Origin: a virus
Direction: 5' to 3' (one strand)
IMG/VR virus record: IMGVR_UViG_2928929829_000001
Location: 16 to 64,015 of that record
Length of the DNA: 64,000 nucleotides
Part shown: positions 148-63,998 of the stretch, piece by piece
How the letters are laid out: every line of letters begins with the position of its first letter
How positions within the stretch are numbered: the first letter of the stretch is position 1
Notes under the pieces: model-generated
The model's input: the letters and a program-made list of their open reading frames with translations, nothing else
Databases searched by the model: none
Told to the model about the DNA's origin: nothing
Position numbers and translations under genes: made by a program

Positions 148-161
148 AAAACCCTTTAAAA

Positions 162-6379: not shown

Positions 6380-6405
6380 ATAAAACCCTTTAAAAACTTT
6401 TAAAA

Positions 6406-37414: not shown

Positions 37415-39808
37415 TTATTGACCCAAAAATTCATCAAAATCAAAGTTGTCTTTGAAATCAATAGCTGGTTTTTTATTATGTCTTTGATCAATCATTTCTG
37501 ATTGTTGTGTTGCTTGCAATTTGGTTCGATCGTCCTTTCGGTTTTCTTTAAAGCCTTCTAGGTTCTCCTTCCCTAAAGAGGTTAACTGAGTTAAATATAC
37601 TTCTTGCTGAAACTCTTTATCTTTTGTAGGCGCCATTATTTCCTGAAGACCTTGTTGTTCCGTTAATTTAATTTTAGAAAGCCCACTTTGAAATTGTAAA
37701 TCAATCTGTTTTTTGAACTGATAGGCATTTGTTTTAGCTTCTTCAGCAGCTTGAGCAGATAGCGCATCATTTTTGGATTTATCTCTAGCTGCTGCCATTT
37801 GTTCTTCCATTCGTTGAGTGCGTTCTTTCCTACGGTGGTAATAAAGGTATTTCCGAGCCAATTTTGGATTGGTTTTAAAGATATTTGTGGCTTCTGATTT
37901 GATTTCTGGGCTTACGAAGCCTTCCTGTAATGCGATACCTAAATCTTCTTTAAACTCTTGTATTTCAAGAGAAGTAGGCATCATATTGAATGTAAATCCG
38001 AATTCATGTAAATGGCGATTTTTCAAAATAGAAAGATGGTCCATCATGTGTTTACCAATCACATTATTGTAAATTTCACGGATTTTACTTGCTTCAGAAT
38101 AATTATAAATAGCTTGGATACGCGTAGAAATAAGTTCACATACTTTTAGGTTAAAAAGCACATTCATTCTAACAATATTCTTTGTTACAGTATTACTGGC
38201 CATCTGAGCCAATTGGTTCACACCTACTAAAGCATCTGAAGGCATTGATCCATCACGTGCGGGATTAATGCCTGTGTTTTCTCTAATTAAATTGTAGTCG
38301 TGTGCCCAGGAGTTAAGTAGAATTGATATTGCAGAACCTTGTTGCGCAGCCATTGGTCGGATCGCGTGTGAATCTTTAAGTCCACTGTCGCCCATGTCAA
38401 TACGCTTTCTAAAAACTACCCCTTTGGCGCCCATAATATCTAAAGCCGTTTGCCAAATAGCCCTTTTAGTTCCGCCTTTACCATCATCCAGTTCAGCCAA
38501 CATATCCAAATCAATCTCTTTTAAGTCGGGAGTCAATTCAGAAATTAAATGTTGAATTTTCAGAGCTGTCAATTGCATTCTATCCGCAATTACTTCAATG
38601 TTATCTGTAAAAGATCTAAGTTTATTTTCGTAAATATCATAAGCATATGCTACAAATGGTGACATTGCTTTATTCATTACATCATCATACAAATTTTCGC
38701 ATTCTTTCCATCCAAATATATATTCTGAACCAATTATGTAATTACCCTCAATCCAAGTATCGAACGTATTAGACAATTCGCTAACATCGTCTTGTTCCGG
38801 GGCAATAAAAGTATCAGGACGTTTACTTAATTTTATTGGTTGTCCATTGCGTAATTTCTTTTTGTATTTAATTGTTTTGACCGTTTTATAAGCAAACCTT
38901 AAAACATCAACTTTTGAACCCAAAGCTTGGTCGGTTAAGCTAATACTGTCATTACTATCTTTATAAGCTTGATTGTATAGACCAGCAATTTTTGATAGCG
39001 TTAAGTCATCAAATCCGCTTTCTCTTTTTAAGTCCGAAATAGTAATAGAATCTACAACACCTTCATAAAACTTATCATCAAAATCGTTTCTCTTTACTTC
39101 CGAGTGTATATAATTTTCTGGATCGACATAATCAACTTTTACACCGTCGTTTTTATCAGTCCAAACTCGTGCAACTATTAAACCAACATCAACAGAATCT
39201 TTATTTTTTTGATCCTCGATAAAGCTCCAGTTATTGGAGTGCTTGATCCAATTGATCAAAATCTCTTCAGCAATTTCTATTTTAGGACGGTCTTTAATAT
39301 CCATCAACATCTCCATTTCTTCCTCATTGTCCGGCACAAATGATTTAGGCATTAAATCGATTCCTAAGTCTTTTTGTACGGATTCCAGAAGCTTACGGGA
39401 TGCCATATATTTTCTATACTCATTCTGCTTACTTTCCTTCATATTAATGGATATTTTATCCATTGCTCGAATATCCAGAATATAATTTTCATCCGAAATA
39501 CCATTGGAAACTATACGACAGAATTTCTCTCCAAGGTTGATATAACGGAAATCCAAATTCAAATAACTTAAATCATTATCCGACTTCGCAATCTGGCTTT
39601 TAAACTTTGTCAAATCAACTTCTCCTCGGACGAATTTTCGCTTCGTTTTTACATATTCTCGTCTTGTCATAAATTGACAACCTTGAGCAATGCGAGCACC
39701 GCTAAACCATTCAGTTGATATTAACTTGGCTACATTTAAACCGTATTCGTCAGTCAATTTGACTTCAAAAGGTGCTAGTGGGTCTATTTCTTTATAAATC
39801 TTACTCAT
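37415..39808 (-). CDS. Portal protein (crAss-type size)
   Basis: 797 aa directly after TerL; C-terminal Q-rich barrel helix. Confidence 0.8.
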   Translation of the reverse strand: MSKIYKEIDPLAPFEVKLTDEYGLNVAKLISTEWFSGARIAQGCQFMTRREYVKTKRKFVRGEVDLTKFKSQIAKSDNDLSYLNLDFRYINLGEKFCRIVSNGISDENYILDIRAMDKISINMKESKQNEYRKYMASRKLLESVQKDLGIDLMPKSFVPDNEEEMEMLMDIKDRPKIEIAEEILINWIKHSNNWSFIEDQKNKDSVDVGLIVARVWTDKNDGVKVDYVDPENYIHSEVKRNDFDDKFYEGVVDSITISDLKRESGFDDLTLSKIAGLYNQAYKDSNDSISLTDQALGSKVDVLRFAYKTVKTIKYKKKLRNGQPIKLSKRPDTFIAPEQDDVSELSNTFDTWIEGNYIIGSEYIFGWKECENLYDDVMNKAMSPFVAYAYDIYENKLRSFTDNIEVIADRMQLTALKIQHLISELTPDLKEIDLDMLAELDDGKGGTKRAIWQTALDIMGAKGVVFRKRIDMGDSGLKDSHAIRPMAAQQGSAISILLNSWAHDYNLIRENTGINPARDGSMPSDALVGVNQLAQMASNTVTKNIVRMNVLFNLKVCELISTRIQAIYNYSEASKIREIYNNVIGKHMMDHLSILKNRHLHEFGFTFNMMPTSLEIQEFKEDLGIALQEGFVSPEIKSEATNIFKTNPKLARKYLYYHRRKERTQRMEEQMAAARDKSKNDALSAQAAEEAKTNAYQFKKQIDLQFQSGLSKIKLTEQQGLQEIMAPTKDKEFQQEVYLTQLTSLGKENLEGFKENRKDDRTKLQATQQSEMIDQRHNKKPAIDFKDNFDFDEFLGQ

Positions 39809-39810
39809 AA

Positions 39811-42036
39811 TTATATTGCTTTGGAAATTGCTCCTGAGTTATCGTATCTTTTAAATGGTATAGTGATTGGCTTCGCTTCTTCAACTTCTATTTTGATTCT
39901 CCTTTGATTACCTAATAAGGCCAAGGAAGAACTGATATAAGCATCGTATTTGGTTCGTTTTGTTGGGTCGACATCTTTCCATTGGATTAATGTTCTGGTA
40001 AAAGGCATATATCCCATTTCTCCAATTGCTCTTCTTGACTCGTCCCTTGCGACACCAATATGGTCTTGGATATATGCTTCTACTGCATAAAATTGATATT
40101 CCCCAATCTTAGCGTCTTGTGGAGGAACTCCCCCATATTCTTGTTCTGTATCGCTTAAATCTTTCCAAAGCTTGAAAGGGTTGTTTAAAACAAAATGACG
40201 ATATCCGCGGTCTTTTACATATTGCAAAAACTTTTCATTTGAAAGCTCCGGCAAGAATGGCATTGAAAAATAAACGGCTGCCATTATCACGTCTTCAAAA
40301 AATAGTTCTACTTTTTTAGGCCGATCGATGTATTCCAAAATGAAAGCATCGTTAGGAAACGGCCCAATATGAAAGCGAGTAGCTAAATGAATTGAACCCA
40401 TCGAACCTCGATTGTCAACCGTTTTGCTTCGATTGTAAGGATCGACACCAAGACATCCCATATTCCCATTAACCGGAGCCCAAGCTAATACGCCGTGAAT
40501 CCTTTTCTTTTCACGCTTGTTCCGATATTCTGCCGGTGGATGATAATCTTTCGCTATCCAAAATCGCCCATTAACGGGGTCAGGCATCCATAAAACCTCA
40601 GTATCTTGTATACCATCTTTCCAATAGAAATTACCTCGTTCTACTTCGTTATTACCTCTTTCGTTATTTTCAAGTTCCTCATCATTGTGCTCAATTTGTT
40701 CCGATAAATGAACAATATTAAAAGCACAATCGTTAGCTTCATCGCGAAAAGCATCGCGTTCTGTTTCAGGAAACTGACGTAAAAATTCATATTGTTTCTC
40801 AGGATCTTCTTTTAAAGCTTCAAGCTCGTTTTTTAAGAACGTTCCAGAACCGATTGAGACAAGTTTACCTAAATCGTTTATTATTGGCGTTTCGGGATCT
40901 GCGACAATACTAAATCCATATTCATCGAAAAACCCTTCCAAACAATATTTAGCAGCAATAAATATTCTATATAACCCTGATTTAGTTTGACCGTTTTTAT
41001 TTCGTTTTGAAACATCGCTATCATCCCAAATTTTCTTAAACTCAGCCCCCCCTTTTTTCATAGGGTTAACCGTAGATACAACCATTGATTTACCTACAAT
41101 ATTACTACCAATACGATGTGAGGTTTTAACGATGTACCAATATGTAGAGAATGGAACATCCGGAGGGTATTTACCGCTTTCATCAAGTAGAGAACGAAAT
41201 ATTTTCTCTCCATCCATAGCATTCATTTCTGTATTATGCCATGAAATATTTGTGTCTAGTCCCTGTCCTTCTGAAACGGCTTCTCCTTGTTTACGCTTTT
41301 TGGTTTGTTCGGTAAATACTAATTCTGTTTTTGGTGTTGTGGTACCATCTGTTTCGGGTTTAAAAAACGGAGGATATCTTTTAAAAGCACGTACTAAACG
41401 ATTGAATATTTTCTTAGCATCCGCACCTTTCTTGGAAATCATACCAAGTATCTTATTCTCGTGGATAGATCCACTTTCCAAAATTTCGTTATTACCTAAG
41501 GCAGATGCTCCAAAACGTCTATTTTTCACGTAGTCCATTCCGTAGCTACGTTCATCAGCTTTACAAGCTTCCCAGAAAATCATCAATTCATTTTGGATAA
41601 CCCTAAGACTTGGATACTCTGCTTCTTCACGATACCACTGTATAAAGTGCCAATATGTACCTGTTAAATAAACCGCTTTACCATTTAGAAATATCCAACA
41701 ACCTTCATCACGCATTTTAAATTGGCGTTCTACGTACTTGGAATATTTTACATTATCCCAATTGCTGTCGTTTAATCCTTCAGGAATTAATTCTCGTTCC
41801 CATTTTTGATTTTTTGCAGTCTTGTCATGATTGATAATCTCCTTTTTATCCGGCTGTTGTGGTAAGCCTATATTGATTCCAGAAATACAATATACTTCAC
41901 CGAGTGTCCCATCTTTAGAGATAATCACAGTATCTAAAACCTCATTATAGCCGTAATCCCAAGACTTATTTTTATTCTTGAGTAAACGAACTTTTTCGTC
42001 AATTACTGAAACCTTATCTCCTAGATAATAAATCAT
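39811..42036 (-). CDS. terL: Terminase large subunit
   Basis: Walker A 'KNRRFGAS', Walker B 'LLDESGK', RNase H-like 'GVDPY' nuclease motif. Confidence 0.92.
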   Translation of the reverse strand: MIYYLGDKVSVIDEKVRLLKNKNKSWDYGYNEVLDTVIISKDGTLGEVYCISGINIGLPQQPDKKEIINHDKTAKNQKWERELIPEGLNDSNWDNVKYSKYVERQFKMRDEGCWIFLNGKAVYLTGTYWHFIQWYREEAEYPSLRVIQNELMIFWEACKADERSYGMDYVKNRRFGASALGNNEILESGSIHENKILGMISKKGADAKKIFNRLVRAFKRYPPFFKPETDGTTTPKTELVFTEQTKKRKQGEAVSEGQGLDTNISWHNTEMNAMDGEKIFRSLLDESGKYPPDVPFSTYWYIVKTSHRIGSNIVGKSMVVSTVNPMKKGGAEFKKIWDDSDVSKRNKNGQTKSGLYRIFIAAKYCLEGFFDEYGFSIVADPETPIINDLGKLVSIGSGTFLKNELEALKEDPEKQYEFLRQFPETERDAFRDEANDCAFNIVHLSEQIEHNDEELENNERGNNEVERGNFYWKDGIQDTEVLWMPDPVNGRFWIAKDYHPPAEYRNKREKKRIHGVLAWAPVNGNMGCLGVDPYNRSKTVDNRGSMGSIHLATRFHIGPFPNDAFILEYIDRPKKVELFFEDVIMAAVYFSMPFLPELSNEKFLQYVKDRGYRHFVLNNPFKLWKDLSDTEQEYGGVPPQDAKIGEYQFYAVEAYIQDHIGVARDESRRAIGEMGYMPFTRTLIQWKDVDPTKRTKYDAYISSSLALLGNQRRIKIEVEEAKPITIPFKRYDNSGAISKAI

Positions 42037-57103: not shown

Positions 57104-57739
57104 TTATTTTAGTTTCCCAAGTTTAGTTAAAAGATTCGTTATTTCTGGAATTACAGTACCTGGATACTTACTATATGCGGGATGCCAAACACAAAGACAC
57201 AAAGTTTTTTTTCCGTTACTTGCAAAGTCGATATTTACAAAATTACATTCGCCATCTACCTTGACTTTACTTACACTAAAATGCTTTTCAAAGTGATGAG
57301 CAGTTCCTCCGAAAATTACTAAATCAGGTTTTAAACTATTTATTTGTCTTATTATTTCTATGCTATTACTTTCAAATGCAATCTCAATCTCATCCTCTAC
57401 ACTTTTGGTACAACCTGGATTTTTCTTGACATTTACAATTGCAACGCGACTAATTAATTCTCTACTATATGGAACATTCCATATAGCACTTAATGTTTTA
57501 CATATATTAAAATAAGTAGGAATATCTAATCGAACATCAGTAACCCATTTTTCAACAACTTCCCTTATGTGCCAATTCCCTAATATTGATCTATCATCTC
57601 CCTCTTCGTAAGGTTCCTTCAGTACAAATAGAATTTTTTGTTTCTCTCCATCATATTTGCGTCCATCTACTGCGCCATCCGAAACAACACCCTTCTCCTT
57701 TGGAGAATCACAACAATGTTCATCTTGATTAATTATCAT
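57104..57739 (-). CDS. Uracil-DNA-glycosylase-superfamily protein (moron)
   Basis: Motif A-like 'ILFVLKEPY', 'AIVNVKK', 'QINSLKPDLVIFGG', motif B-like 'WHPAY'. Confidence 0.7.
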   Translation of the reverse strand: MIINQDEHCCDSPKEKGVVSDGAVDGRKYDGEKQKILFVLKEPYEEGDDRSILGNWHIREVVEKWVTDVRLDIPTYFNICKTLSAIWNVPYSRELISRVAIVNVKKNPGCTKSVEDEIEIAFESNSIEIIRQINSLKPDLVIFGGTAHHFEKHFSVSKVKVDGECNFVNIDFASNGKKTLCLCVWHPAYSKYPGTVIPEITNLLTKLGKLK

Positions 57740-58147
57740 GTTTTATTTAATGTATAGTTATATCTAGACAATATATTAAAAATAAAACATTTTAACAATT
57801 TAATTTTAAATTATGACAATATGGTTGAGAGGGTATACTATGTTTGAGAGTTTGGTCCCACAAAAGAAAATGGAAATATAAAAGGGTATGGGGTGCCTTT
57901 ATGAGTGATGTCTGAAAACATTTTACCTTTTTTGTACGCGCTCGTTTCTGCTGATTTTTAAAGGAACTAATTTTAATACTGCTTAAATCTGGCTACTCAT
58001 TTTAGAATAAACCTACTCACATAAAGGAAACTGATCTTTTAAACACCGTTCTAATCTCTAAAGGATTCGAACCAATACAACTACATCGCATATAATCAAT
58101 TGATTACAGTTTAAACCAACTGCATTATCCCGACCATATCCCTACGC

Positions 58148-58303
58148 CTACAAATTATTGCGCTTCTTCCAGTACTCTATCAAGTCGTTAAGTTCCTGAA
58201 TAGCTGCACTATGTTTAGTTGGTATTCTGTTTTCCCTTAACTGTGCATCACTGTATCCTAGTGTCTTTGAAAGTTCTTTCTTGTTGATCATCTTGTTAAT
58301 CAT
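58148..58303 (-). CDS. Small DNA-binding protein (HTH-like)
   Basis: MINKMINKKELSKTLGYSDAQLRENRIPTKH...; TATCTTTG box at 58369-58376; start at 58303 or 58291. Confidence 0.5.
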   Translation of the reverse strand: MINKMINKKELSKTLGYSDAQLRENRIPTKHSAAIQELNDLIEYWKKRNNL

Positions 58304-58640
58304 AAAAGCCAATATATTGGTTAAAACTCTGGGGAAAACAGCCAATATTTTGGCTTTTCATCTTCTGACAAAGATATACTTTTATTCAAATGGATATACA
58401 CGTGTGTTCGTGTTTGTCATTTCTCAAATTTTCATTGCACTAGTAACAAAACAACTCCTAATGTATCAAACAAACAAAACCAACTCAACAGCAATACAAA
58501 CTAAAATACCGCAAATACAATAGATTATAGCGACTTTACACGTGTTATACATAAACTTATATATTAAGGTGTATTTTAAAGCCTTAGAATCACTAACAAT
58601 CAATTTTACTTATAGCTTTTAGAATAACGATAGAAAAATA

Positions 58641-58695
58641 TTATATCAATAAATATATCCGATATGCTTTTGTTTAAATATTAATTGTACTTTTG
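58641..58695 (+). promoter_or_regulatory. Early-region promoter with tripartite operator, site 7
   Basis: TTATATC-AATAA-ATATATC-C-GATATGC at 58641-58667; TTTG at 58669-58672; TACTTTTG at 58688-58695. Confidence 0.7.
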
Positions 58696-58811
58696 TACAA
58701 CAAGAAACAAACAACGGTTTACGCCGTGTGCGCTTCGCGCCTCTTTGCCTTTGCTTGTATCTTCTCTCTCTTCTTACTTAGTAAGGTCTTTAAAAGATAA
58801 CGGAGCGAATC

Positions 58812-58874
58812 GGTTAAAATACTCGGGCAGGTTTATTTTAATCAAGGAATTTAAAAACAATACAAACCCTTTAA
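58812..58874 (+). promoter_or_regulatory. GGGCAGG-loop hairpin plus AAACCCTTTAA box, copy 1
   Basis: GGTTAAAATA-CTCGGGCAGGTT-TATTTTAATC; box at 58864-58874. Confidence 0.7.
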
Positions 58875-58884
58875 TCTTATAATT

Positions 58885-59367
58885 ATGTACTTTATCAATT
58901 GCACTACACTAGACGAAGCTAAAAACCTTTTCAAAAAATTGTGTTTCGAATTACACCCTGACACTAGCGGTTATTACTCAGAACCTGATTTTATTAAAAT
59001 GTTTAAAGAGTTTAAGAATTTCAAACCATCAACAGGCGAAACCGAAGACTTCAACGCTGAGAAATTCTACGACATCATTAAAATGTTTGAGGGATTAGAA
59101 GACATTAATATCTCATTCGTTGGCTCCTTTATTTGGCTGACAGATTTAACTCCTGGTGCAATGTATACGCAAAAGGATTTGATCAAAGGAATCACAATTG
59201 AAAACTACAATACCCCACGATGGGCAAGATTAAAAAAGTCTTGGTACTTCTCCCCTGCTGACTATGTAAAGAAAAACGGCAAGCAAAGAGATTTAGAGGA
59301 CATAAAGAGTTACTACGGAAGCAAGGACTTTCAAACGAAAGGATCGTTTAAACTAGCAATGTCGTAA
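58885..59367 (+). CDS. J-domain protein
   Basis: 'EAKNLFKKLCFELHPD..G....FIKMFKEF' HPD motif; C-terminal 'GSFIWL...KKSWYF' domain. Confidence 0.8.
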   Translation: MYFINCTTLDEAKNLFKKLCFELHPDTSGYYSEPDFIKMFKEFKNFKPSTGETEDFNAEKFYDIIKMFEGLEDINISFVGSFIWLTDLTPGAMYTQKDLIKGITIENYNTPRWARLKKSWYFSPADYVKKNGKQRDLEDIKSYYGSKDFQTKGSFKLAMS

Positions 59368-59372
59368 TTAAT

Positions 59373-59419
59373 CCCCCGAGGTAGGGCAGGCTCTCGGGGG
59401 AACTCTTAAACCCTTTAAA
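59373..59419 (+). promoter_or_regulatory. GGGCAGG-loop hairpin plus box, copy 2
   Basis: CCCCCGAG-GTAGGGCAGGCT-CTCGGGGG; AAACCCTTTAAA at 59408-59419. Confidence 0.75.
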
Positions 59420-59428
59420 TATATCTTA

Positions 59429-59683
59429 ATGAATATCTATACAAATGATTGCTTTGAAACTATTCACGGAGCAAAACAGAATCTTTTGAACTACCTCGAA
59501 TTACTATTTGCTAATTCAAGCGAACAGGAAGAAAAAGAAGCACTAACGGAAAGCATCGAAACAATAAATTATCAATCCCAATCTTACGGAGAAAATCAAG
59601 TCTTAGAAATTAAAATAAGCCCTATAGATGGCGCCTACTATATCACTGGCTTATCAGATTTCCAAAACTTGCCAATAAACTAA
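59429..59683 (+). CDS. Hypothetical protein (acidic)
   Basis: 84-aa ORF. Confidence 0.65.
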   Translation: MNIYTNDCFETIHGAKQNLLNYLELLFANSSEQEEKEALTESIETINYQSQSYGENQVLEIKISPIDGAYYITGLSDFQNLPIN

Positions 59684-59686
59684 ACT

Positions 59687-60037
59687 ATGAGAACACTTGA
59701 AGAATTACATGTATTAATAGACAAGTTGCAGTTGTTGGCTGACAAGAAGTCAAAGGAGTTAATTATTTTAGATCACGAAGATAAGTGCCCTATAACTCAT
59801 TCAAGAGGGGATAAATACTACAAATGTTTGGGAGCTATTCAAAACATTATGAGAGAAAAAGGAAAATATAGTTGGGCTTGTGCTGAATTAAAGGAAAATA
59901 TCAAAAAAAATAAGCATTATGTTATGTCTCAACGTGAAAAATCTAGACTTGCAGAATTAAGAGTTACATCTACTACTTACGAAAGAGCAATGAATAGAAT
60001 CAGCAAAGAAGTAGCCTTAAGGTTTAACATAAAATAA
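59687..60037 (+). CDS. Hypothetical protein (basic)
   Basis: 116-aa ORF. Confidence 0.65.
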   Translation: MRTLEELHVLIDKLQLLADKKSKELIILDHEDKCPITHSRGDKYYKCLGAIQNIMREKGKYSWACAELKENIKKNKHYVMSQREKSRLAELRVTSTTYERAMNRISKEVALRFNIK

Positions 60038-60068
60038 AAACAAAGTCCCTAGCTTAAAATAAAATATC

Positions 60069-60323
60069 ATGAAAAAAGCACTATTAGTTATCGCATTTGG
60101 ATTTTCAACCTTTACCGCAAAATCTCAAAACATTATCGTAAATCTTGACAACAAACCAGATAAGGAAAAGTCACAAGATAAGCAAGCCGGCACAGTTATA
60201 AAAAACAAACAAGAGAGAGTTTTGTATGTTTCTAAGAATGGTAAATACTACTACTACCAAACTAGCAAAACAACTGGCAAAGAATACAAAGTGTATTTAA
60301 AGCCTGAACAAATTAAAAAGTAA
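60069..60323 (+). CDS. Small secreted protein with PBCV basic-adaptor-like C-terminus
   Basis: Signal peptide 'MKKALLVIAFGFSTFTAKSQ'; 'VLYVSKNGKYYYYQTSKTTGKEYKVYL'. Confidence 0.65.
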   Translation: MKKALLVIAFGFSTFTAKSQNIIVNLDNKPDKEKSQDKQAGTVIKNKQERVLYVSKNGKYYYYQTSKTTGKEYKVYLKPEQIKK

Positions 60324-60345
60324 ACTAGATCTCACATTAAAACCA

Positions 60346-60377
60346 TACTCGGGCAGGAGTAACTAAAACCCTTTAAA
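60346..60377 (+). promoter_or_regulatory. GGGCAGG hairpin plus box, copy 3
   Basis: TACTC-GGGCAG-GAGTA; AAACCCTTTAAA at 60366-60377, ATG at 60379. Confidence 0.7.
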
Positions 60378-60378
60378 T

Positions 60379-60735
60379 ATGAAAGCATCAAACAGTTTCA
60401 AAGAAACAATAAAAAATCATTTAGAAATAGTTGCTAAAAATGACAAGCTATTTGCTGTAACCTACGCAAAAGAAAACAAAAACATAGATGATTGTATTAC
60501 ATACATTTTAAATAAAGTAAAATCTTCGGGTTGCAATGGTTTTGCCGATGATGAGATTTTTGGAATGGCAATTCATTACTACGATGAAGATGATATTAAA
60601 GTCGGAAAAGCTATTAATGCTAAAGTAGTTGTTAATCATTCGCAACCTAAAAAAGTTAAGAAACAAACTGAATCTGTAAAAGTTGCCAAAGTCAAACAAA
60701 GCAACCCATCATTAAACCAAATGGAACTTTTTTAA
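60379..60735 (+). CDS. PcfK-like protein (family includes AcrIIA9)
   Basis: 'FKETIKNHLE..AKNDKLFA..YAKENKNIDDCITYILNKVKSSGCNGFADDEIFGMAIHYYDEDDI'. Confidence 0.88.
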   Translation: MKASNSFKETIKNHLEIVAKNDKLFAVTYAKENKNIDDCITYILNKVKSSGCNGFADDEIFGMAIHYYDEDDIKVGKAINAKVVVNHSQPKKVKKQTESVKVAKVKQSNPSLNQMELF

Positions 60736-60744
60736 TTGTAGAAT

Positions 60745-62046
60745 ATGAAGCCGAAAACTAAAATTCAAAAAGTAGTCTGCGGATTTGCGGACACTTTACC
60801 CAAACTAACCAATGATCAATTTGAATATGCTTGTTCTAAATTCTTTGAGAAAATGTGTTATAGAACAAAGAACACAGCTTTTTGTTTGGAATGTGGTAGC
60901 GACATTGATGTAAATAAAATTCACCGAAATAAAGTAGAATGTACAAAGTGTAATTCTACTTTAAAAGTAACTACAACTAAAAAAAGAAGTTACGACAGCC
61001 CATTCTTCTATTTTGCTATAGCTGATCTAATAAGTAATGATCAATACGACTTTCAGGTTGTGAGAATTTTCGAATTCCGTAAGTATCATAAAAAAGGAAT
61101 AGAAGCTAATGTATATGGTAGCGAGGTTTGCCAGAACTGGTATAATGTAGATGGAAAGAGAGTTATAAATTCCTGTTTAATTACGAGTTTTGGAAATTTT
61201 CAAGGAGATATAGAAATCAGAACTGAAAGTTATTGGAAATCTTACGAAGTATCTCCTGATTTATACTGTAAAACATCGAAATTCCGACCAGAATACAAAC
61301 GTTTAGGCATTGATCATAATTTAAAACATTTAACCTTAATCCCTCTAGTTAACAAAATAAGATGTTGTACTAAAACAGAAACACTGATAAAAGCAGGTTA
61401 CTGTGGCGCTGTAAATAAATGCACTGATAACAACTTAAACAAATTCTGGCCAACCCTGAAGATTTGCCTTAGAAATCAATATAAAATAAAAGATTCATCG
61501 ATGTATATTGATTATTTGAATCTTCTAGAGTACTTCAAAAAAGATTTACGGAACTCAAAGTTTGTCTGCCCTAAAAACTTAAAGAAGGAGCATGATCTTT
61601 TGATGAATAAAAAAAGAAAAATACTTCAGAAAGCCGAACAAGAAAGGGAAAAGGTTAGAAGTGAAGCCAGGAGAGTAAAAATTGAGAAAAACCAAATTGA
61701 ATATACCCGAAACAAAGGCGTTTTCTTCGGTGTTGCTTTTTCTAAAAATGATATCGAAATCAAAGTTCTTGAATCAGTACAAGAATTTAAAGAGGAAGGG
61801 GATATCCATAATCATTGCGTTTTTACTAATGAATATTATAATAAAGAGGATTCATTGGTTCTTTCTGCTAAAGTAAAAAGCAAGCCCGTAGAAACAGTTG
61901 AAATTTCATTATCTAAAATGAAAATAATACAATCTAGAGGTTTAGGAAATGAAGCTTCCAAGCATAATAAAGAGATTGTCTCTTTAGTTAAAAAAAACCT
62001 ACATATCATCAAGCAACGTTATAGTCAACTTCAAAAAACAGTTTAA
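60745..62046 (+). CDS. PcfJ-like protein
   Basis: 'CLECG', 'DYLNLLEYFKKDL', 'CPKNLKKEHD', 'EEGDIHNHCV', 'ETVEISL...IIQSRG'; follows PcfK as usual. Confidence 0.88.
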   Translation: MKPKTKIQKVVCGFADTLPKLTNDQFEYACSKFFEKMCYRTKNTAFCLECGSDIDVNKIHRNKVECTKCNSTLKVTTTKKRSYDSPFFYFAIADLISNDQYDFQVVRIFEFRKYHKKGIEANVYGSEVCQNWYNVDGKRVINSCLITSFGNFQGDIEIRTESYWKSYEVSPDLYCKTSKFRPEYKRLGIDHNLKHLTLIPLVNKIRCCTKTETLIKAGYCGAVNKCTDNNLNKFWPTLKICLRNQYKIKDSSMYIDYLNLLEYFKKDLRNSKFVCPKNLKKEHDLLMNKKRKILQKAEQEREKVRSEARRVKIEKNQIEYTRNKGVFFGVAFSKNDIEIKVLESVQEFKEEGDIHNHCVFTNEYYNKEDSLVLSAKVKSKPVETVEISLSKMKIIQSRGLGNEASKHNKEIVSLVKKNLHIIKQRYSQLQKTV

Positions 62047-62061
62047 AGCTATGAACTTTAA

Positions 62062-62125
62062 ACACCTGCATAGCAGATAGGCAGATTTGCGGTGTGTTAG
62101 TAAACAACAAGTAAAACCCTTTAAA
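62062..62125 (+). promoter_or_regulatory. Degenerate hairpin (AGGCAG loop) plus box, copy 4
   Basis: ACACC-T-GCA...TAGGCAGATT...TGC-GGTGT; AAACCCTTTAAA at 62114-62125. Confidence 0.5.
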
Positions 62126-62134
62126 ATTTATATC

Positions 62135-63022
62135 ATGACAAATTACCTATTAGGACAGTATTTACAAGATTGTATAACAGCTCACAATTGGACTTCTTTC
62201 AGTCCAGAAAAACGTGGCAGATCGTTAGTAATCGAATTCAGCGAAATGCTAAAAGAAGACTTGGAAAAACTCGGAGACCATCAAGGAAACTATAAAGAAA
62301 AATTTATTACTAAGTTCCGTGACTGGGTTAGATCTAAAAGTAATTGCGCATCCAGCATGATAACTGGAGGATCCAATTTTAATGTTAGGCGTGCACAAAA
62401 AGCAAACGCTACAGAACAAAACAAGTACGAATCTTTCATGACCTGGAGAGCAAAGTATTTCGAAGCAGTCAACCGAGTACCTACAAAAAGCCCCGAAGAA
62501 GAAATTACTTTGGCAGATCGCAAACTTGAGGAACTAACCAACTTACAAATCGAGTACAAAGAGATTAATGTTTTAATCAAAAAATCAAAGCTCAAGGAAA
62601 GAAACGAGATTATTGAATTACTTCTAAAAGAAGGTTACTCAAAAGAAGCGATTACAGCACTTAATGAAGTCAAGAAGTATAACGGAGTAGATTATGTAAT
62701 TGAGTCTTACAAAGTCCCTACATACACTCTTACAAACAATAATGCAAAGATTAAAGCAGCAGCACAAAAAGTAATCATAATGCAAAACCGTATTACTAGA
62801 AAAGAATCTTGGGAAGATATCCTTTTCGACGATGGCCGAGTAACAATTGAAGATGACAGGGTAAAAATTATCCACGACAACAAACCTAATCCCGAGATCA
62901 TACAGGAACTTAAAAAGAACGGTTTCCGCTGGTCCCCTTTCTGGAAGTGCTGGTGTCGTAAACATACTGGTAACGCTATTGCGGTGACTAAAGGTTTAAG
63001 TTTTATTGTACAAACAACCTAA
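62135..63022 (+). CDS. Polyvalent-protein-associated (DUF3560-like) protein
   Basis: 'CASSMITGGSNFN' and C-terminal 'DDRVKIIHDNKPNPEIIQELKKNGFRWSP..KCWCR'; start re-assigned to 62135. Confidence 0.6.
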   Translation: MTNYLLGQYLQDCITAHNWTSFSPEKRGRSLVIEFSEMLKEDLEKLGDHQGNYKEKFITKFRDWVRSKSNCASSMITGGSNFNVRRAQKANATEQNKYESFMTWRAKYFEAVNRVPTKSPEEEITLADRKLEELTNLQIEYKEINVLIKKSKLKERNEIIELLLKEGYSKEAITALNEVKKYNGVDYVIESYKVPTYTLTNNNAKIKAAAQKVIIMQNRITRKESWEDILFDDGRVTIEDDRVKIIHDNKPNPEIIQELKKNGFRWSPFWKCWCRKHTGNAIAVTKGLSFIVQTT

Positions 63023-63086
63023 TCCAGATACGGAATTCCGTATCTCAGAAAAACAAATATTTACTAAATTTCAATAAATTAAATCT

Positions 63087-63260
63087 ATGTACGATTCATT
63101 AACAACCCTAATCGAAATTCTAGACATATCAAAGAAAAGCACAAGCTATTCAATGAGTAATGGACATTTTACTATTAAAATAGAAAATGAGGTTTACATG
63201 TACCCCTATGACCAAACAGGAATATCCAAAGCTATCAAAGTAATTGAAGACAAACTATAA
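63087..63260 (+). CDS. Hypothetical protein (57 aa, below ORF-track cutoff)
   Basis: MYDSLTTLIEILDISKKSTSYSMSNGHFTIKIENEVYMYPYDQTGISKAIKVIEDKL fills the gap between genes. Confidence 0.6.
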   Translation: MYDSLTTLIEILDISKKSTSYSMSNGHFTIKIENEVYMYPYDQTGISKAIKVIEDKL

Positions 63261-63267
63261 AAAAGAA

Positions 63268-63322
63268 ACCCCGTAAACGGGCAGGTCTACGGGGTCATTA
63301 TATCAATATAAAACCCTTTAAA
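63268..63322 (+). promoter_or_regulatory. GGGCAGG-loop hairpin plus box, copy 5
   Basis: ACCCCGTA-AACGGGCAGGTC-TACGGGGT; AAACCCTTTAAA at 63311-63322. Confidence 0.75.
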
Positions 63323-63361
63323 AATCTTATATTAGGGCAAATTTACTAAAATTAAATCAAA

Positions 63362-63577
63362 ATGACACTACAATCCCACTTCGCAAAATATATTCGTGAC
63401 AGACGCTTAGAATTAAAAATGACAATTGATGAAGTTTCTATTTTAGCCTATGGGGATATCTCTAGAAAATCGATGATTTCAAATATAGAAAATGAAAAAA
63501 GAAGCGTTAAGATTGACACTATGGAAAAGATTTTGACAGCTTTAAATTCACGTTGCGAATTTATCCAAAACAAATAG
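63362..63577 (+). CDS. XRE/Cro-family HTH regulator
   Basis: 'IRDRRLELKMTIDEVS...KSMISNIENEKRSVKIDTMEKILTALN'. Confidence 0.9.
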   Translation: MTLQSHFAKYIRDRRLELKMTIDEVSILAYGDISRKSMISNIENEKRSVKIDTMEKILTALNSRCEFIQNK

Positions 63578-63590
63578 AAAAGGAATTAAA

Positions 63591-63998
63591 TCAAATTCCT
63601 TTTCTATCTAAAACTTCCTGTAAAAGCTTTTCAATATTATCCATTTTGTGTAACAATCTATTTTGAGATTTAAACAACAACTCTAATTTCGAATTTAATC
63701 CCTCGAGGTTAGACACCTCCCCAAACATATTTTTTTGAGACTGAGCAATGGCAGGAGGTACAATCACAGGTAATTCTCCGTAAGCAAGAAATAGATAACT
63801 AACCGCAGGGTATATTTTAATTATCTTCTTAATCATCTGCTCAGTTATTTTGTTCCGCCCTTTCAATACAAAATAGATGCTCATCTGATTTTTATAACCT
63901 AAATCATTAGCTAAACTACTTGCATTTGTTTCTAATGTATTTAAAAGTAATTGCATTCTTTCCGGATGACTAACAATAATGCTTTTTTCTTCCTCCAT
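63591..63998 (-). CDS. Repressor-like HTH protein (Bacteroidetes CI-type N-domain, no S24 peptidase seen)
   Basis: 'ERMQLLLNTL..NASSLANDLG...SIYFVLKGRNKIT...YPAVSYLFLAYGE' plus a C-terminal leucine zipper. Confidence 0.75.
   Translation of the reverse strand: MEEEKSIIVSHPERMQLLLNTLETNASSLANDLGYKNQMSIYFVLKGRNKITEQMIKKIIKIYPAVSYLFLAYGELPVIVPPAIAQSQKNMFGEVSNLEGLNSKLELLFKSQNRLLHKMDNIEKLLQEVLDRKGI

Follow-up and report, generated by a model that had tools for sequence, protein, structure and literature searches.

What are the five small hairpins that recur between the genes of one early prophage operon, and what, if anything, reads them? The question is raised by the last part of a 64,000-nucleotide stretch of viral DNA (the window; IMG/VR record IMGVR_UViG_2928929829_000001, positions 16 to 64,015), which corresponds to G000:C12:31269-95268 within a 3.87 Mb genome (G+C content 37% for the genome, 34% for the window). 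The original prediction for this locus had described repeated hairpins with a GGGCAGG loop, each followed by a 12-letter box upstream of an early gene, and had offered antitermination, translation control or single-stranded DNA (ssDNA) promoters as possible functions. On the comparative evidence considered here the hairpins belong to a real family of cis elements, outside Rfam and undescribed, for which both a function and a reader can be proposed. Translation control ranks first among the options originally offered; the tentatively preferred reading is that the five hairpins are cis-acting RNA operators in a single polycistronic early operon of a temperate phage, recognized by a lineage-specific reader.

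On re-reading the sequence, the coordinates and sequences of all five elements hold (Table 1), and folding confirms three GGGCAGG loops within hairpins of 8-10 base pairs (bp) with unrelated stems, one GGGCAGG atop the 5 bp TACTC/GAGTA stem, and one degenerate hairpin that has AGGCAGA in its loop instead. GGGCAGG occurs five times in the window against 1.5 copies expected, and four of the five are in hairpin elements; its + strand copies number four, every one intergenic and between 58.8 and 63.3 kb. Further elements were looked for by a loop-anchored script scan of the whole genome and by homologue-guided search. The genome-wide count that had been suggested as a check gives 129 copies, of which four lie in loops of hairpins of at least 8 bp; three of these are in this operon and the fourth (C4:52419) is inside a coding frame. 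GGGCAGG presented in a loop is essentially confined to this prophage within the host genome. A tighter description of the loop is a GGGCAG hexaloop with a C-G closing pair, as found in hairpins 1, 3, and 5. Consistent with the suggestion that the element was undescribed, Rfam models matched only a tRNA at gathering score and nothing credible at E <5 in 57700-63700, and no match to the family was found in the literature searched.

Each hairpin is followed by the box AAACCCTTTAA, which has seven exact copies in the window (starts at 149, 6383, 58864, 59408, 60366, 62114, and 63311) against 0.13 expected, a number reached by none of 100 shuffles. All copies are on the + strand, and each ends 2-40 nucleotides (nt) upstream of the ATG of a + strand open reading frame (ORF); for most ATGs the distance is 0-12 nt, and the longer spacing of box 5 recurs in relatives. 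The two copies that had been described as standing alone before the genes at 162 and 6406 were found there, without a hairpin. The prophage holds seven of the 12 genomic copies; the other five have no such context, with perhaps one exception. The box is best understood, from its placement in these genomes, as a leader or translation-initiation element of the downstream cistron and not as a promoter, because the lone copies stand in intergenic gaps of 15 and 26 nt, because box 3 is 1-2 nt from the PcfK ATG, and because in relatives with canonical TATATTTG promoter boxes the equivalent pre-ATG motif lies downstream of them, past the predicted transcription start. The PcfK start itself is supported by a PF14058 match (1.9e-35) whose alignment begins at residue 4. 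The host 23S rRNA (G000:C31:2688-2697) has TTTAAAGGGT, a perfect 10-nt complement of ACCCTTTAAA in the box; this is probably coincidence (by rough estimate a chance of about 1 in 20, p ~0.05), because a conserved rRNA could not be complementary to every one of the box variants found in relatives.

Table 1. Hairpins, boxes, and other features of the window, in window coordinates
Feature	Position	Strand	Description
Hairpin 1	58812-58843	+	GGTTAAAATA / loop CTCGGGCAGGTT / TATTTTAATC; 10 bp; -7.8 kcal/mol; 5' leader of first gene
Hairpin 2	59372-59401	+	(T)CCCCCGAG / GTAGGGCAGGCT / CTCGGGGG(A); 9 bp, GC-rich; -19.4 kcal/mol; 5 nt after orf160 stop
Hairpin 3	60346-60361	+	TACTC / GGGCAG / GAGTA; weak, -5.3 kcal/mol
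Hairpin 4	62061-62098	+	8-9 bp stem with one bulge; 17-nt loop with AGGCAGA; after PcfJ; -11.8 kcal/mol, z -1.6
Hairpin 5	63268-63295	+	ACCCCGTA / AACGGGCAGGTC / TACGGGGT; 8 bp; A-run just before
Box 1 (AAACCCTTTAAT)	58864-58875	+	~10 nt before ATG 58885, J-domain-like protein
Box 2	59408-59419	+	~9 nt before ATG 59429 (orf84)
Box 3 (AAAACCCTTTAAA)	60365-60377	+	1-2 nt before ATG 60379 of PcfK
Box 4	62113-62126	+	~8-10 nt before ATG 62135 (295-amino-acid ORF)
Box 5	63310-63324	+	37-40 nt before ATG 63362 of terminal HTH_3 gene
Box without hairpin	149-160	+	2 nt before ATG 162 (457-amino-acid ORF); 15-nt intergenic gap
Box without hairpin	6383-6394	+	12 nt before ATG 6406 (231-amino-acid ORF); 26-nt intergenic gap
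Predicted promoter and operator	58685-58700	+	-7 box TACTTTTG (58688-58695) inside perfect inverted repeat TTGTAC-TTTT-GTACAA
Leader hairpin and candidate boxA	58730-58749	+	GCGC-TTC-GCGC, then CTCTTTGCC (58741-58749)
Operon	58885-63577	+	J-domain-like orf160, orf84, orf116, 84-amino-acid ORF, PcfK, PcfJ, orf295, orf57, HTH_3
Bidirectional intrinsic terminator	63571-63610	both	14-17 bp stem, T-runs; -15.6 kcal/mol, z -6.9
Portal	37415-39808	-	
Large terminase	39811-42036	-	

The elements are retained in a close relative, Flavobacterium sp. JP2137, where GGGCAGG is unchanged while the loop flanks mutate. In hairpin 1 of JP2137 the stem and GGGCAGG are kept and both loop flanks are altered; hairpin 4 has the counterpart TGCACCGCA / gataggcagatt / TGCGGTGTA; and in hairpin 5 one substitution gives an unbroken 11 bp stem with an exact GGGCAG hexaloop. 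The C-G pair closes the hexaloop in all three perfect-motif hairpins of this relative (1, 2, and 5).

Homologues of the J-domain-like protein encoded by the first gene were used to find syntenic blocks farther away, in Myroides odoratus (L069), in three prophages of metagenomic or run-assembled origin (L072/073, L074/075, and L124), and in an IMG/VR contig (L093). Each block has a long leader and, between the J-domain-like gene and a terminal HTH_3 gene, a variable set of small genes (PcfK/PcfJ, RadC, DUF3560). The hairpins of L069, L072, L074, L124, and L093 have stems of 6-12 bp, again unrelated to one another, and carry the loop motif YTACCAC(A) (TACCAC type); the boxes of this type are AAACCCCTTTAAAA or AACCCTATTAAAA, 0-40 nt before the ATG. 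Over the four blocks counted (L069, L072, L074, and L124), 18 of the 20 + strand copies of TACCAC are intergenic and 13 are in loops of such hairpins. The stem covariation expected of homologous loci was found in an alignment of seven positional orthologues of hairpin 5, which has compensatory changes at four of nine pairs; in one hairpin orthologous between L069 and L124, two adjacent C-G pairs are replaced by G.U and U.G on the + strand. Hairpin-1 orthologues were compared across loop types by eye, and MAFFT did not align their stems. This comparison supports the conclusion that the elements are real, strand-specific, and selected for structure plus loop sequence. The structure itself, the loop conservation with stem covariation, the specificity of strand and position, the placement of the box relative to promoters and start codons, and the occurrence of the element family in related prophages are direct observations.

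The loop motif and the box vary independently: two variants of the box accompany TACCAC, and two different loops are found with the CCCTTTAAA-type box. More distant relatives (L081, L083, L125, L077, and L079) have the J-domain-like gene and an TATATTTG promoter box of its own for each gene, with element-specific pre-ATG motifs (TTAAAACACTAC, AAACCACTAAAAAA, AATCACTACA, or AAAACCTTAAAA). The sequence of the box is uniform inside each element and different between them, which would follow from either an element-specific reader or recombinational spread. In the TACCAC type the loop motif is also found unpaired, just 3' of hairpin 1 or between the box and the ATG, which fits a reader of single-stranded RNA that acts near initiation sites. 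The HTH_3 protein is 89% identical within the GGGCAGG type and 39-49% between loop types, and the J-domain-like protein 65-72%.

Some further features of these blocks were recorded along the way. The TACCAC type has a conserved (A)ACATGTC(T/C)G 3' of hairpin 5 (L069:6210-6225, L072:6373-6388, L074:6244-6256, and L124:7564-7578) that recurs after hairpin 1 in L124; the window has CATTATATCAATATA at the hairpin-5 position instead. A 5' A-run precedes hairpin 5 in all seven relatives of the alignment, and two of the orthologues have A.C mismatches on the + strand that are G.U if read on the - strand. In L083 a whole promoter-hairpin-leader unit (ACGTGAAATAT...ATGTTTCACGT) is repeated before two genes. 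The window also has a perfect 20-bp palindrome, AGATACGGAATTCCGTATCT, at 63026-63045 between orf295 and orf57 (-10.8 kcal/mol, z -4.5), without box, GGGCAGG, or T-run.

Searches based on motif alone were less productive. GGGCAGG-N-AACCCTTTAA matched 10 other genomes among 400 of the family, one among 150 of the genus, and 42 IMG/VR contigs; all are regarded as chance because they have stems of at most 6 bp, a coding-like context, or both. TACCAC-N-AACCCCTTTAAA matched 35 IMG/VR contigs, of which one (L093) is a true relative, and a metagenome scan with the J-domain protein alignment gave four short contigs only. Three partners of the loop were also considered. A loop-box pseudoknot was rejected, the only pairing being GGG with CCC here and none in the TACCAC type; pairing with the T-arm region of a host spacer tRNA was put down to chance, as the variant motifs cannot hold it; and for an antisense or small RNA partner, CCTGCCC is absent from the non-coding parts of the prophage.

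The five hairpins appear to share one transcript. The original association of the elements with early, anti-defence-like phage genes is supported. The first gene, orf160, encodes an HPD motif and has homologues with the source name J domain-containing protein, the 84-amino-acid ORF has a signal-peptide-like N-terminus (MKKALLVIAFGFSTFTAKSQ), and the terminal gene (63362-63577) encodes an HTH_3 domain (PF01381). Upstream lie 1.1 kb of mostly non-coding DNA. The Bacteroidetes promoter consensus is TAnnTTTG; the predicted promoter of the operon, its -7 box inside a perfect inverted repeat, has a similarly arranged counterpart in JP2137 (TTGTACATTTGTACAA in the same place), and several class-I relatives (L069, L124, and L074) have a TACATTTG box within a different palindrome. 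The internal gaps of the operon have neither a TAnnTTTG box nor a TTGACA/TATAAT pair, and a sigma-70 scan gave 27 sites where 25 were expected, which is no excess. None of the five hairpins has a T-run (U-tract in the RNA) at its 3' side on the + strand, as an intrinsic terminator would; the only canonical intrinsic terminator is the one at the end of the operon. Because the internal gaps are without a -7 box, the hairpins without a T-run, and a terminator found only after the HTH gene, the block is predicted to be one operator-controlled operon with a single promoter and a leader of ~185 nt. Hairpin 5 is the sole one of the five that scores as an intrinsic terminator, and on the - strand only; it may shield the operon against antisense read-through.

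The leader has a second feature of note, a hairpin followed by a CTCTTTG motif. In all class-I relatives the leader has CCCC(N)GGGG followed directly by GTTCTTTGA(C/T), conserved as GTTCTTTGAC; relatives in which each gene has its own promoter lack this motif. A same-genus rrn leader has a -7 box, an CCCCGCAAAACGGG hairpin, and GCTCTTTGAAAG, with CGCTCTTAGAAA in another copy, and TGTTCTTTAACA stands at the rrn leader in a genome from a neighbouring family. The hairpin and motif at 58730-58749 may be a Nus-factor site, and by sequence 58741-58749 is a better boxA candidate than the pre-ATG box, which suggests Nus-type protection of a long operon; such control is plausible because the leader hairpin and CTCTTTG motif are conserved in relatives.

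The DNA that carries the operon is, by its gene content and synteny, an integrated temperate tailed podophage related to Cellulophaga phage phi18:3. The portal, the large terminase, and several further virion proteins are encoded on the - strand; one 2548-amino-acid polyvalent protein includes a kinase domain, and a 432-amino-acid ORF on the - strand directly right of the window is a putative tyrosine integrase, as judged by position and phi18:3 synteny. Among isolated phages, the Cellulophaga baltiviruses (phi18:3; TerL 60% identity) come nearest; they are temperate and alike in overall layout. Both motifs are absent from phi18:3, whose syntenic block has no equivalent, and from Polaribacter phages with PcfJ. 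The host is probably a Flavobacterium, because a PcfJ 89% identical is found in JP2137 and the genus-mates of the host have Flavobacterium-type rrn leaders. A 65-amino-acid ORF (58148-58345, - strand) lies in the long run of non-coding DNA that precedes the operon; a 101-amino-acid protein (L069:2442-2747) conserved among the TACCAC-type prophages is unrelated to it, and the small upstream - strand ORF was rejected as the reader since it is not homologous between loop types.

Under the preferred reading of the hairpins as RNA operators, transcription would start at the single host-type promoter, which is overlapped by the palindromic operator, and would continue through the leader and nine genes to the terminator. 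Before five of the cistrons the mRNA would form a short stem, arbitrary in sequence, with (C)GGGCAG(G) exposed at its apex, and the AAACCCTTTAAA box, 4-20 nt downstream of the hairpin, would form the 5' edge of the translation-initiation region of the next cistron. A reader that binds the loops would tune or shut off the downstream cistron through translation and/or the stability of the mRNA segment. We infer that the acting molecule is RNA and that it is read in trans, and the identity of the reader and the sign of its action are proposed on the same footing. The reader would most simply be a phage protein, with the Aca-like helix-turn-helix (HTH) protein of the HTH_3 family at the end of the operon as first candidate; a host factor with host targets is unlikely because GGGCAGG in a loop is essentially confined to the prophage.

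All elements are co-oriented with the genes, which supports this reading. By analogy, the layout also matches that of acr-aca operons, with an operator-overlapped promoter, genes of anti-defence type, and a terminal HTH gene, and HTH_3 identity tracks loop type. Several points weigh on the other side. Phylogeny by itself may account for the correlation of HTH protein and loop type. Because the stems are variable and have nothing in common with the TTGTAC/GTACAA operator, an HTH reader would have to bind them in a different mode, and operators differ within the TACCAC type though the loop is constant. Hairpins end 16-66 nt from the ATG, mostly beyond the ribosome footprint. The A-run and A.C mismatches suggest that at least hairpin 5 is also active on the - strand, Pfam recognized no RNA-binding domain among the operon proteins, and the transcript and its ends are predictions from sequence.

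A bolder form of the RNA-operator reading is rather unlikely: hairpin and box together would constitute a new class of intercistronic expression module that works without Shine-Dalgarno sequences, in which the box, as an element-specific sequence, would load the ribosome and the loop would dock a phage RNA-binding regulator that co-evolves with it in specificity (GGGCAG versus YTACCAC). The terminal HTH protein could fill this role, in a loop-reading mode not seen in Aca1/Aca2. If true, this would supply an RNA operator and its reader as a portable, orthogonal pair, along with a system of cassettes through which counter-defence genes could be swapped.

Processive antitermination of the nut or rrn type is somewhat unlikely as the main function, and it is the strongest of the rivals together with gene shuffling (below). 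The hairpin would be a boxB analogue for a phage N-like factor and the box a boxA for NusB/NusE, with the complex reloaded along the operon. The nut-like role originally suggested keeps part of its appeal: the hairpin-then-box order is that of rrn boxB-boxA, and the loops are lineage-specific and the box more conserved, like lambdoid boxB and boxA. The leader adds its own hairpin and CTCTTTG motif. The E. coli boxA consensus is GCTCTTTAACAA; the box matches it at nine of 12 positions and the same-genus rrn leader sequence GCTCTTTGAAA at eight of 11. A boxA that adjoins a start codon is known to be functional in suhB (10.1101/091223). The pattern of sites is harder to reconcile with it, as there are five within 4.7 kb, mostly abutting start codons, and in the short gaps at 149 and 6383 the box has no hairpin. 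The variants of relatives (AACCCTATTAAAA, AAACCACTAAAAAA, and AAAACCTTAAAA) break the CTCTTT core that would be expected under a conserved host factor. No intrinsic terminator lies within the operon to be overridden, no arginine-rich N-like peptide is found among the operon translations, and the loops (a GGGCAG hexaloop in 6-12 unpaired nt) are unlike GNRA-like pentaloops.

It is likewise somewhat unlikely that the motifs are mainly joints for gene shuffling, in the manner of the PeSL cassettes of T4-like phages. Here the stem-loop would insulate or stabilize the upstream 3' end and the box would start the next gene, perhaps as a promoter for a phage-modified RNA polymerase. Between the J-domain-like and HTH genes each relative has a different gene content, with the hairpin-plus-box islands retained throughout. 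In the window 676 bp (59689-60364), with orf116, the 84-amino-acid ORF, and hairpin 3, have no counterpart in JP2137, where the alignment picks up again exactly with box 3 (from its first base, 60365) and the box stands alone; because this indel takes hairpin 3 and leaves box 3, the hairpin moves with the upstream genes. L069 and L124 share a 58-nt island of hairpin plus box that is 83% conserved and flanked by non-homologous genes, and in the more distant relatives each gene is preceded by a hairpin, a -7 promoter, and a box. On these few cases of coincidence with shuffling breakpoints, the motifs mark gene-shuffling joints, as do the PeSLs, composite terminator/promoter repeats that mediate such shuffling in T4-like phages (PMC4122927). 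Duplication or recombination would, however, have preserved the stems too, and only the loops are kept. The gaps have no host-type promoter consensus and the + strand no U-tract, and where the box is 0-2 nt from the ATG a promoter would find no space upstream of the transcription start. In the ORFs scanned with Pfam no sigma domain was found, PF00940 (T7-type RNA polymerase) had no match in the genome in a search whose control was also silent, and the two largest virion proteins, both giant, gave no PDB sequence match and only Kinase-PolyVal, LPD38, and fn3 in Pfam.

It is quite unlikely that the hairpins are processing or stability signals without a dedicated reader, comparable to the RNase III sites in T7 early transcripts, where a host endoribonuclease would cut the A/U-rich spacer or box and the hairpins would protect the resulting 3' ends. 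Their location in an early polycistronic operon fits, as does their position 5-22 nt past stop codons (hairpin 1 excepted), with A/U-rich single-stranded sequence thereafter. Yet a hairpin can protect without its loop being conserved, RNase III would require longer stems, hairpin 1 follows no gene that it could protect, and the loop motif of relatives also stands unpaired beside start codons.

Structures acting as DNA (Frpo or N4 single-strand promoters, priming signals, or attC-like sites) are highly improbable: PcfK, PcfJ, and DUF3560-like genes are typical of the leading regions of conjugative elements, the layout is cassette-like with a putative tyrosine integrase gene nearby, and strand specificity is compatible with ssDNA, but the genome is that of a tailed double-stranded DNA (dsDNA) phage, the unrelated 5-10 bp stems have no -35/-10 as Frpo would, the loops are of 6-12 nt and not N4's 3 nt, no virion RNA polymerase was detected in the PF00940 and PDB searches described above, and attC-like R''/R' inverted core sites and extrahelical bases are lacking. 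The original claim of selection on RNA or ssDNA structure is therefore upheld for structure and loop, with stem covariation as its support, and not for the ssDNA form; the N4 and plasmid leading-region (Frpo-type) promoters it had invoked fall away with the latter.

Phages of Bacteroidota are almost unmapped as to gene control, and their hosts do without Shine-Dalgarno pairing, which gives the elements a bearing on how internal phage cistrons are translated and shut off. The signal described here is compact and mutable: five times in one operon it combines a loop of 6 nt and a box of 12 nt with a stem of free sequence. The sister prophages supply a natural specificity variant of the loop suited to reporter and pull-down designs. 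The motifs also mark the joints at which prophages exchange counter-defence genes.

Known systems resemble the hairpin-plus-box elements to different degrees. Integron attC sites likewise form a co-oriented cassette array with a hairpin of variable sequence after each gene, but here the inverted core sites and the integron integrase/attI arrangement are lacking, the stems are far shorter, the loop is conserved, and the context is a dsDNA phage. Lambdoid nut sites and rrn leaders share a hairpin with a phage-specific loop joined to a boxA-like linear box in an early operon, with a second boxA-like motif in the leader; the differences are the five copies by start codons, the 6-12 nt loop, a box that is not conserved among relatives, and the lack of an N-like protein and of an internal intrinsic terminator. 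A Nus-type complex as reader would make this the first described phage antitermination system in Flavobacteriia. The GGA hairpins of CsrA, the coat-protein operators of MS2 and PP7, and the targets of T4 RegA are protein sites presented by loops. They are alike in the short loop motif on variable hairpins, in unpaired copies near the start (TACCAC type), and in the many targets per regulator; their motifs are unrelated, and no CsrA- or RegA-like gene was seen here.

The PeSLs of T4-like phages are composite stem-loop repeats before small early genes (PMC4122927, PMC2839356). Like the present elements they combine a repeated stem-loop with an expression signal before small variable early genes, and lie at indel and replacement breakpoints; unlike them they carry sigma-70 promoters and effective terminators, whereas here there is neither promoter consensus nor U-tract and only the loop is conserved.

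The closest parallel in layout is with Aca HTH regulators, which repress acr-aca promoters and also bind RNA hairpins in the 5' untranslated region (UTR), and RNA motifs between neighbouring genes of anti-defence operons are on record (PMC13551039). Both have a counter-defence-type operon that ends in a small HTH gene, a promoter under an inverted repeat, hairpins in the 5' UTR and between genes, and a proposed role in translational damping. Aca1/Aca2 (PMC13551039 and Aca2 work that it cites) read a helical stem that copies the DNA operator, whereas here the stems are free of any such repeat and the apical loop is conserved; the hairpins are also mostly outside the initiation region, and the host is a member of Bacteroidota without Shine-Dalgarno sequences. 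The likeness of the HTH_3 protein to Aca is one of operon layout. Were the terminal HTH protein to prove the reader, Aca-type RNA binding would extend to a new mode of recognition and to a new phylum.

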